IMG/VR virus record: IMGVR_UViG_3300028591_000073
Coordinates: 160,001 to 224,000 of that record
DNA: 64,000 nucleotides
Direction: 5' to 3' (one strand)
From: a virus
Lineage: Duplodnaviria; Caudoviricetes
Shown in pieces: positions 4,608 to 56,280 of the stretch. The translations under genes were made by a program, and so were the position numbers. How positions within the stretch are numbered: the first letter of the stretch is position 1; each line of letters opens with the position of its first letter. The notes beneath the pieces are model-generated. The model was not told the DNA's origin. It ran no database searches and saw only the letters and a program-made list of their open reading frames with translations.

Positions 4608-4849
4608 GTTCCTCCTTATAATTATATTTTGCAGTATTTACAACAATAATCGTTCTGCAAATATTAGAAACTATTCTGTCGATTAATAACGTTGCACAAA
4701 TGATTATTATGATAACAATACCAACTGTCATATTTCATGCTTCCTTTCTTCATTATGTTTTTCATGTTTTTTGTATTCATATATCTCATAGATATGACAA
4801 GCAATCGTAATGCATGCACTGATTGCCCAGCAAACAAATAGTGCATTAA

Positions 4850-54905: not shown

Positions 54906-55217
54906 TATGCTCCTGTCTCTATCCCTTCGGGGAATACATGATATCCATCAATATTTTATTTTTCTATTATTTTAATTTTTGAAATATATATAATTAATAT
55001 GATATCAATGAATATCAAATTCATTTGTTAGTAGATCTAATGCGAAGGGATCGAAAGCAATTGAGGATGATGGAGATATCGGATGAAGCTTACATCCTAA
55101 AAGAAAGCGATCCTTCTCATACCAGCCGAGAAGTAAAATAACGCTGGAGTCACTGGCAACAATACAAAGTGGGACGTCCGAGGATTAGTGAACCTCGCCC
55201 ACAAAGGAGAAATTCTT

Positions 55218-55469
55218 ATGACATTATTCACACTGATTGACAGATTATCCGATAATGACATCTTCGCAATGCCTTTCGATAGCTACACAATCACCCTAGT
55301 CAAGTACAATCACAAAGAAACTGCCGATTACCTCCCAGGCATGGTCTCCATAGGTCAGGTGGAGTACGACCATATCGATGATGCGGTAACCAATCCGCAC
55401 ATCGATATGGACAACGATACCCTCACAGACGCCGACAAGGCTTTGTTGAAGGAGGTGTTCAATCTCTGA
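55218..55469 (+). CDS. small acidic hypothetical protein
   Basis: AAAGGAG RBS before MTLFT. Confidence 0.65.
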   Translation: MTLFTLIDRLSDNDIFAMPFDSYTITLVKYNHKETADYLPGMVSIGQVEYDHIDDAVTNPHIDMDNDTLTDADKALLKEVFNL

Positions 55470-55632
55470 TCAATCAACCTGAGTAGGTTGTAAAACTACT
55501 CAAAGAAAGGATCACTGTGTAGGTGAACCCTCAGCAATAGTTGAGGCCGCCGATAGCTGATCCGACATCCATACTCGGACTGTCGTGAGACAGCCCTTCC
55601 CGTGTAAATCATCTTAGAAAGGAGGTGATTAC

Positions 55633-55851
55633 ATGAAAAAGAATTTCGTTCTTGGTTCCAGTCTTGATTCAGTTGAAGACGATGTGCTCGGGTTCGCCCG
55701 CAGACACAATCTGACAATTGAAGACAGACGTGAATATGACGAAGAGGGCAGACAGGAATTTGAATGTGACAGATTCATCCCGTCATACCTCAACGTCAAA
55801 TTCATGGATAGAAAGGGAGTCAAAGTCAACGTAACATTTGTTTACGAATGA
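55633..55851 (+). CDS. small hypothetical protein
   Basis: GAAAGGAGGTGA RBS. Confidence 0.7.
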   Translation: MKKNFVLGSSLDSVEDDVLGFARRHNLTIEDRREYDEEGRQEFECDRFIPSYLNVKFMDRKGVKVNVTFVYE

Positions 55852-55876
55852 TCTAACTCCAATCTATCTTGGATAA

Positions 55877-56082
55877 GGACGCCCCGTACGTGGGGGAAGG
55901 ATAATAAATACGCGTATACAGCCTAGGCATGCTGTTATAAAAACCGCCCACCAAATTGAGGTCCTCGGCATGACCGTCATTAGAAAAGAACTGCCGGTGT
56001 CCTGAGTATGACACCTAGCCAAAAAAGAACTGCTCACAATCCAGGTCCTGAATATGACCTGGATAACAAAAAGAACTATTCA
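55877..56082 (+). ncRNA. array of H-type pseudoknots (one type-A plus four tandem type-B units) followed by terminator at 56082-56107
   Basis: Stem-CTNRRYAT-stem, A-rich linker, AACY plus loop-complementary tail; compensatory changes between units. Confidence 0.65.
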
Positions 56083-56280
56083 AAAGGAGATCCAAGATCT
56101 CTTTTTTCTTTTAACTTTTTTCTTTTTTGGCATGTATATACTTAATTTGACCGAAGGTCAAATTGTAATAATAACATTAATAGAGAATTCATAATATTTT
56201 ATATTTATGGATATATAAAGTTATTATGTACAGACACCTTAGGTCTTGTATAAAATGTCATATGAAAGGAGAAATGCAAT

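Follow-up and report, generated by a model that had tools for sequence, protein, structure and literature searches.

The window analysed here, 64,000 nt in length, covers positions 160001-224000 of a 294,548-bp virus record. The phage is a rumen jumbo phage with a genome of 294.5 kb, which encodes a chaperonin, a divergent DnaB and five tRNAs. Its best match among sequencing runs was a sheep gut metagenome, and relatives were found in bovine gut. A host from the Bacillota is suggested by this habitat together with strong GGAGGUG-type SD sequences. An array of RNA pseudoknots lies at the 3' end of a putative transcript of ~1.1 kb, whose features are given below. R1 denotes a covariance model built from outside members of the pseudoknot family to which we assign the units, and R3 a model of cptI repeats.

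54984-55003, + strand: putative early-type promoter motif, AT-rich, 14 genome copies in a motif scan, kept in strains
55034-55059, + strand: P1, small and weak candidate pseudoknot of the 5' leader; stem changes in strains L043 and L052 keep pairing
55081-55108, + strand: P2, H-type pseudoknot of the 5' leader; a stem 1 G-C pair is A-U in L047
55113-55147, + strand: P3, H-type pseudoknot; loop and tail covary in L047, L051 and L052
55218-55469, + strand: ORF A, 83 aa
55475-55502, + strand: P4, single family pseudoknot just past the ORF A stop; R1 17.9 bits, E 6e-4
55509-55634, + strand: structured leader, one long and two small hairpins, kept in strains
55633-55851, + strand: ORF B, 72 aa, small beta-alpha-beta-beta-beta protein, exchangeable cargo
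55882-55916, + strand: U0, fifth pseudoknot of the array, linker end like that of cptI linkers; no R1 or R3 match
55918-55950, + strand: U1, family pseudoknot with degenerate loop-tail stem; R1 24.8 bits, E 3e-6
55960-55997, + strand: U2, pseudoknot with long linker and 6/6 loop-tail pairs; R1 only 9.2 bits, for the hairpin part
55996-56036, + strand: U3, canonical family loop and tail, long linker; R1 31.9 bits, E 1e-8, partly circular
56039-56082, + strand: U4, 9-bp stem, long linker; R1 22.7 bits, E 2e-5; Rfam 6A 19.2 bits, below the cut-off
56082-56112, + strand: intrinsic terminator, hairpin plus U-run

The initial annotation had described four tandem H-type pseudoknots at 55918-56082, and all four are present there as U1-U4, each with a stem of 4-9 bp and a loop of 8 nt. 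Spacers between the array units measure 0-9 nt, a hairpin follows each unit within 0-9 nt, and U1 starts 66 nt past the preceding stop codon. We could also corroborate that the tail complements the loop and changes with it: loop nucleotides 2-7 are paired with the tail at 6/6 positions in U2-U4, including wobbles in U2 and U3, and the paired sequences co-vary between units. U1, which had been called the weaker unit, carries two loop-tail mismatches (4/6 paired, five pairs in strain L051). The linkers of U2-U4 comprise 12-16 nt and end in AAAAGAAC (AAGAAC), while that of U1 ends in AAAAAC, as in the family. The terminator described as following immediately after the array is indeed found there. 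The count of four holds for these units, but it missed U0 and the four earlier knots of the same transcript (P1-P4). A knot scanner reported four knots in 55852-56125, a number reached by 1 of 2000 dinucleotide shuffles; the four probably include U0 instead of the weak U1.

[quoted passage not shown] A metatranscriptome contig matches 55017-55606 without differences and stops short of the array; such contigs carry no strand or end information. Compensatory changes among strains were observed in P2, P3 and P4, in the last case for the loop-tail pairing in L051 and L052. In L044 (1-60), and also in L043, L045 and L050, the slot of P4 is occupied by another pseudoknot that is built alike, with a 10-nt loop and a GUAAAA linker. 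Judging by this slot, strains seem to exchange knots as modules. The structured leader (fold z -5.3 for 55468-55635) has no Rfam match, its last hairpin (55602-55634) is predicted to mask the ORF B start region (SD and AUG), and the leader may be a translational switch. In L051 and L052 a protein of 25% identity takes the place of ORF B, L050 has ORF B without U1-U4, and in one sequencing run the leader is separated from the array by 349 other bases. Cargo genes are exchanged between strains and the RNA parts are retained.

The wild strains were gathered by searching for homologues of ORF A and ORF B, the small proteins encoded upstream of the array. Array identity among them is 157-163/165 nt (95-99%), compared to 71-84% for true ORF B homologues. 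U0 was found in every strain that covers its site, and in L045 the terminator is a different hairpin plus U-run, so that its structure is kept and its sequence replaced. Loop-tail changes among close strains are few and non-compensatory, with three breaks and two neutral or improving changes. The strain data show selection on the array but do not by themselves show the loop-tail pairing; the loop-tail stem is supported by covariation between units and between phages. In the related phage G001 (75% complete) the motif was not found and an RNA polymerase subunit gene occupies the slot of the array. Patterns for the exact array had no match in viral contigs.

The units share a build that recurs in other phages: a short stem, an 8-nt loop CUNNRYAU, an A-rich linker ending in AAC and a six-pair loop-tail stem starting with A-U. 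U1-U4 all conform to this loop closed by a stem 1 of at least 4 bp. A search pattern made of the U3 loop and tail only, with the stem unconstrained, gave at least 119 metagenome-contig and at least 117 viral-contig matches. A stem of at least 4 bp was present in 83 of 116 distinct cores among the matches listed, compared to a mean of 15 and a maximum of 25 for shuffled arms, and only two of these 83 stemmed cores lie inside long ORFs. Variant loops carry the matching tail in 25/26 matches; the U1 loop is among them, so that other phages have this loop together with a tail that pairs. In an alignment of 56 outside members 98.8% of the cells pair, and six of the nine pairs change on both sides. 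The top four matches of R1 in the 64-kb window were U3, U1, U4 and P4, with U2 weak at 9.2 bits; the score of U3 is partly circular, as the seeds derive from the U3 motif, and that of the other units less so. On covariation, model score and strain conservation, the array is judged to be a real structure under selection whose units are copies of the family, U2 weakly so.

Neither the region nor 20 family loci, when scanned against Rfam 15, gave a family for the knot, and the tenpI and cptI repeats gave no significant match to the family model. The family is common in phages and has no Rfam entry. Cultured cyanophages carry the knot between genes, and a likely member was found in a Pseudoalteromonas phage. 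Two or three copies within 200 nt occur in at least 9/85 contexts, a lower bound, since units of the AAGAAC type were not detected by this tally. The AAGAAC linker itself is rare (0/83 cores among the matches listed; two viral matches), and none of the other contexts (0/85) has a member that abuts a terminator. What is new and unusual here is therefore the head-to-tail, terminator-abutting stack of four units with the rare long AAAAGAAC linker.

One option of the initial annotation was a ligand-binding array, and it noted the similar topology of preQ1-I aptamers. In such a reading, tandem small-molecule aptamers would control the terminator. The H-type topology, the A-rich linker with its A-tract and the adjoining terminator agree with preQ1-I (RF00522). 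However, the Rfam scan gave no preQ1 match at E<=10, six of the eight loop nucleotides are paired and vary between units, leaving no room for a free and constant pocket, the array takes a 3' position, and no antiterminator was seen. We regard this aptamer reading as highly improbable.

A stop codon lies within 30 nt of 25/72 family members, and a U-rich run follows 18/83 cores. Knots after stops might thus halt post-termination scanning or insulate cistrons, while the stack pauses RNA polymerase and tightens the terminator. Coremin, a viral pseudoknot discussed below, stalls scanning ribosomes and causes frameshifting in E. coli (PMC10520033, PMC10321173), which would be in line with such a barrier. 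The distance between the stop codon and U1, the needlessness of four to five copies for this purpose and the lack of any other terminator-abutting member make this reading improbable for the array.

The unpaired bases L1 C, terminal loop U and AAAC are invariant across hundreds of unrelated phages, and among the matches listed an RBS lies within 60 nt of 32/83 family cores. These observations, like the conservation of U1 in sequence despite its degenerate pairing, could reflect a multivalent site which titrates a conserved host or phage protein (e.g. a ribosomal, decay or chaperone protein), with the single pre-RBS copies recruiting it. On the other hand, tertiary contacts would explain invariant bases equally, as in coremin and cptI, no co-conserved candidate protein was found, and ORF B is exchangeable. 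A protein-binding array is in our estimate clearly unlikely.

The initial annotation had also proposed a mimic of type III antitoxins. Such a decoy would soak up or distract TenpN, CptN or ToxN during infection, with the antitoxin-shaped knots of the transcript not being canonical antitoxins. Likeness to known antitoxins is real but superficial. U2-U4 resemble tenpI (PMC12283969, PMC13682666) in being H-type knots with a long A-rich L2 containing AAAAGAA, their linker end AAAAGAAC is close to the AAAAGAAA of tenpI and rare within the family, and U3 has the GCUCA tail. Like tenpI, the array consists of non-identical tandem units that end in a terminator; a layout of array plus terminator is that of type III antitoxins (PMC12283969), and non-identical tenpI repeats can both function (PMC13682666). 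U0 and P3 resemble cptI (PMC4627078), which has a one-nt L1, an A-rich L2 and an S2 of 5-6 bp: the linker end of U0 is alike, and loop variants of P3 match cptI loops at 7-8/9 nt. Potential targets exist, as TenpN was found in 13/399, CptN in 11/300 and ToxN in 22/301 genomes of what is probably a sample of the clostridial class. Phage mimicry has a precedent in the pseudo-ToxI of PhiTE, a tandem pseudoknot array without a toxin (PMC3475682).

The quantitative comparisons, however, place the units elsewhere. The sole Rfam echo in the region is the 19.2 bits of U4 with 6A (RF02925), at a cut-off of 41.2. Rfam 6A is a tenpI antitoxin, because a terminator and a TenpN gene (NF047358) follow four of seven 6A or 6A-like loci (L013, L025, L035, L038). 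ToxI was not matched in the Rfam scan of the region. A model from 29 tenpI repeats (R2), which found 7/10 held-out loci at 30-76 bits and missed three divergent ones, scored the array at 11.4 bits with E 0.9. R3, built from 54 cptI repeats, found 13/13 held-out loci and had no match to the array. Consequently, the covariance search for ToxI, CptI and TenpI proposed at the outset ended without a significant match in the array, and the resemblance of P3 and U0 to cptI was discarded since the model search gave no match.

Further differences point in the same direction. The array lacks the GA(A/U)GA flank, the ~8-nt single-stranded tails and the ~50-nt period of tenpI, has another loop and S2 register and no promoter of its own, and also lacks the GC/GC stem core and the AAAUGU-type flank of cptI; the 45-51 nt period of the antitoxins is absent. 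Type III toxins grip single-stranded ends, whereas the array spacers are only 0-9 nt long. In the tenpI layout the TenpN gene follows the terminator, while here the next gene encodes a 275-aa Pro/Gln-rich protein. A search of the genome found no TenpN (NF047358) and no CptN or ToxN (NF047359, PF13958). ORF A and ORF B were considered as partner toxins and rejected: neither has family matches (for ORF A none in PHROG, NCBIfam, Pfam or Atlas), and the best fold Z of ORF B, 6.7 (<7), is uninformative and not MazF-like. ORF B was also dismissed as a partner of the array on account of strain L050, which has it without U1-U4, and of its replacement in L051 and L052. The PhiTE pseudo-ToxI is a near copy of its antitoxin that keeps most ToxI positions and has near-identical repeats, whereas the array units differ from each other and from the collected antitoxins and fit the mini-pseudoknot family far better. 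As the model scores and the flank, spacer and toxin tests are all negative, the units are not members of the tenpI or cptI antitoxins. A non-canonical decoy is unlikely, though the rarity of the long AAGAAC linker and the match of the P3 loops to those of cptI leave it some probability. Among the antitoxin loci that were collected, two 6A copies precede an integrase in L028, and no toxin adjoins them. Genome G201 (L059/L075) carries tenpIN and cptIN back to back, a pair that also occurs in the viral record L363/L475.

The closest resemblance is to coremin (xrRNA-C, xrRNA-WCC), an exonuclease-resistant RNA element of BNYVV, SPlV5 and RnHV2 (PMC10520033, PMC10321173). Array and coremin share a GUC/GAC-type stem 1, a one-nt C as L1, an A as penultimate loop nucleotide, AAAC before the tail and a GAG/CUC loop-tail core, as in the Watson-Crick variant of coremin; tandem repeats and 3'-UTR or intergenic sites occur likewise. 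Compared to the coremin loop YG(NN..)AD, the first C, the penultimate A and the last D of the array loops conform, but position 2 is U, while coremin requires G there (PMC10520033). Coremin tolerates loops of 6-8 nt, and CGAGUAA is resistant (PMC10520033, PMC10321173). The array loops have 8 nt and six Watson-Crick loop-tail pairs, compared to two or three in coremin, and their carrier is a DNA phage of bacteria. Coremin has a hairpin, hp2, directly downstream, and a hairpin is present after each array unit; in the family such a hairpin is not enriched (13 vs 15 of 83). Xrn1 proceeds through ordinary pseudoknots (PMC10321173), and exonuclease resistance of the array can therefore not be assumed. 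Since one flaviviral xrRNA stops the bacterial RNase J1 (PMC5760640), a roadblock mechanism is possible in bacteria. Our literature search found no paper on coremin-like elements in phages.

We propose that the array acts as a stacked nuclease roadblock, which either leaves a stable 3' RNA of ~200-230 nt or shields the mRNA end. This option of the initial annotation gains support from the apparent membership of the units in a coremin-xrRNA-like phage family. Like the plant-virus coremin xrRNA, each knot would be a small obstacle that halts processive ribonucleases mechanically, with the stem of the next unit, or the terminator, providing the downstream hairpin that coremin needs. Decay in the 5'-to-3' direction, by RNase J in a host that is probably from the Bacillota, would halt at U0/U1 and leave the stable ~200-230-nt RNA, comparable to the ncRNA3 made by BNYVV. 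The stack might likewise protect the mRNA from trimming in the 3'-to-5' direction, and the differing loop-tail sequences of the units would limit cross-pairing and recombination. The most plausible role of the stable RNA would then be to sequester a nuclease or RNA-binding protein of the host. Transcription of the + strand, the nuclease block and the accumulation of the 3' RNA or protection of its end are what we infer from these comparisons.

The nuclease roadblock is favoured by the conservation of the array, which exceeds that of the genes, and by the hairpin after every unit. A limit is that a 5' block at this place would protect the array only. To our knowledge, gammaproteobacteria mostly lack RNase J, and the likely member in a Pseudoalteromonas phage argues against a strict dependence of the family on this enzyme. 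The conservation of the degenerate U1 fits recognition of its sequence as well as mechanics. An exonuclease block is more likely than antitoxin mimicry for the array, and we hold it tentatively, at somewhat below even probability. Both ideas may be combined in a coremin-like knot that was rebuilt into an array, giving a stable sfRNA-like ncRNA with converged tenpI- and cptI-like surfaces that serves as an uncleavable toxin decoy of several specificities; this we consider quite improbable.

Exonuclease-resistant RNAs have so far been described from eukaryotic RNA viruses. If the knots stop RNase J, phages would use the same trick to control RNA decay, and the array would be the sole one of the ~85 contexts examined that is expected to give a stand-alone decay product. 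With four natural loop-tail variants on one scaffold it offers a ready test case. Tandem A-rich pseudoknots followed by a terminator are not automatically orphan antitoxins, and the value added by this analysis lies in the arrangement of the knots and in the quantitative exclusion of tenpI and cptI membership.

Besides the units of the array, R1 finds four further copies outside the window, at positions 4745, 98910, 248914 and 249583 of the genome (G000). An SD lies ~20-115 nt downstream of each of the five dispersed copies, P4 included, and one copy is part of a 5' leader. The same hairpin module and SD come after the knots at 4745 and 249583, and the knot at 248914 is followed from 249028 onward by an ORF with a DFNGDAD stretch that resembles the NADFDGD motif of RNA polymerase. 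In phages L387, L267 and L265 an RBS is immediately preceded by two or three tandem family knots that differ from one another. Downstream of the array, a perfect palindrome at 56144-56164, which recurs ahead of the homologous gene in the related phage L001, is a possible promoter hairpin or operator.
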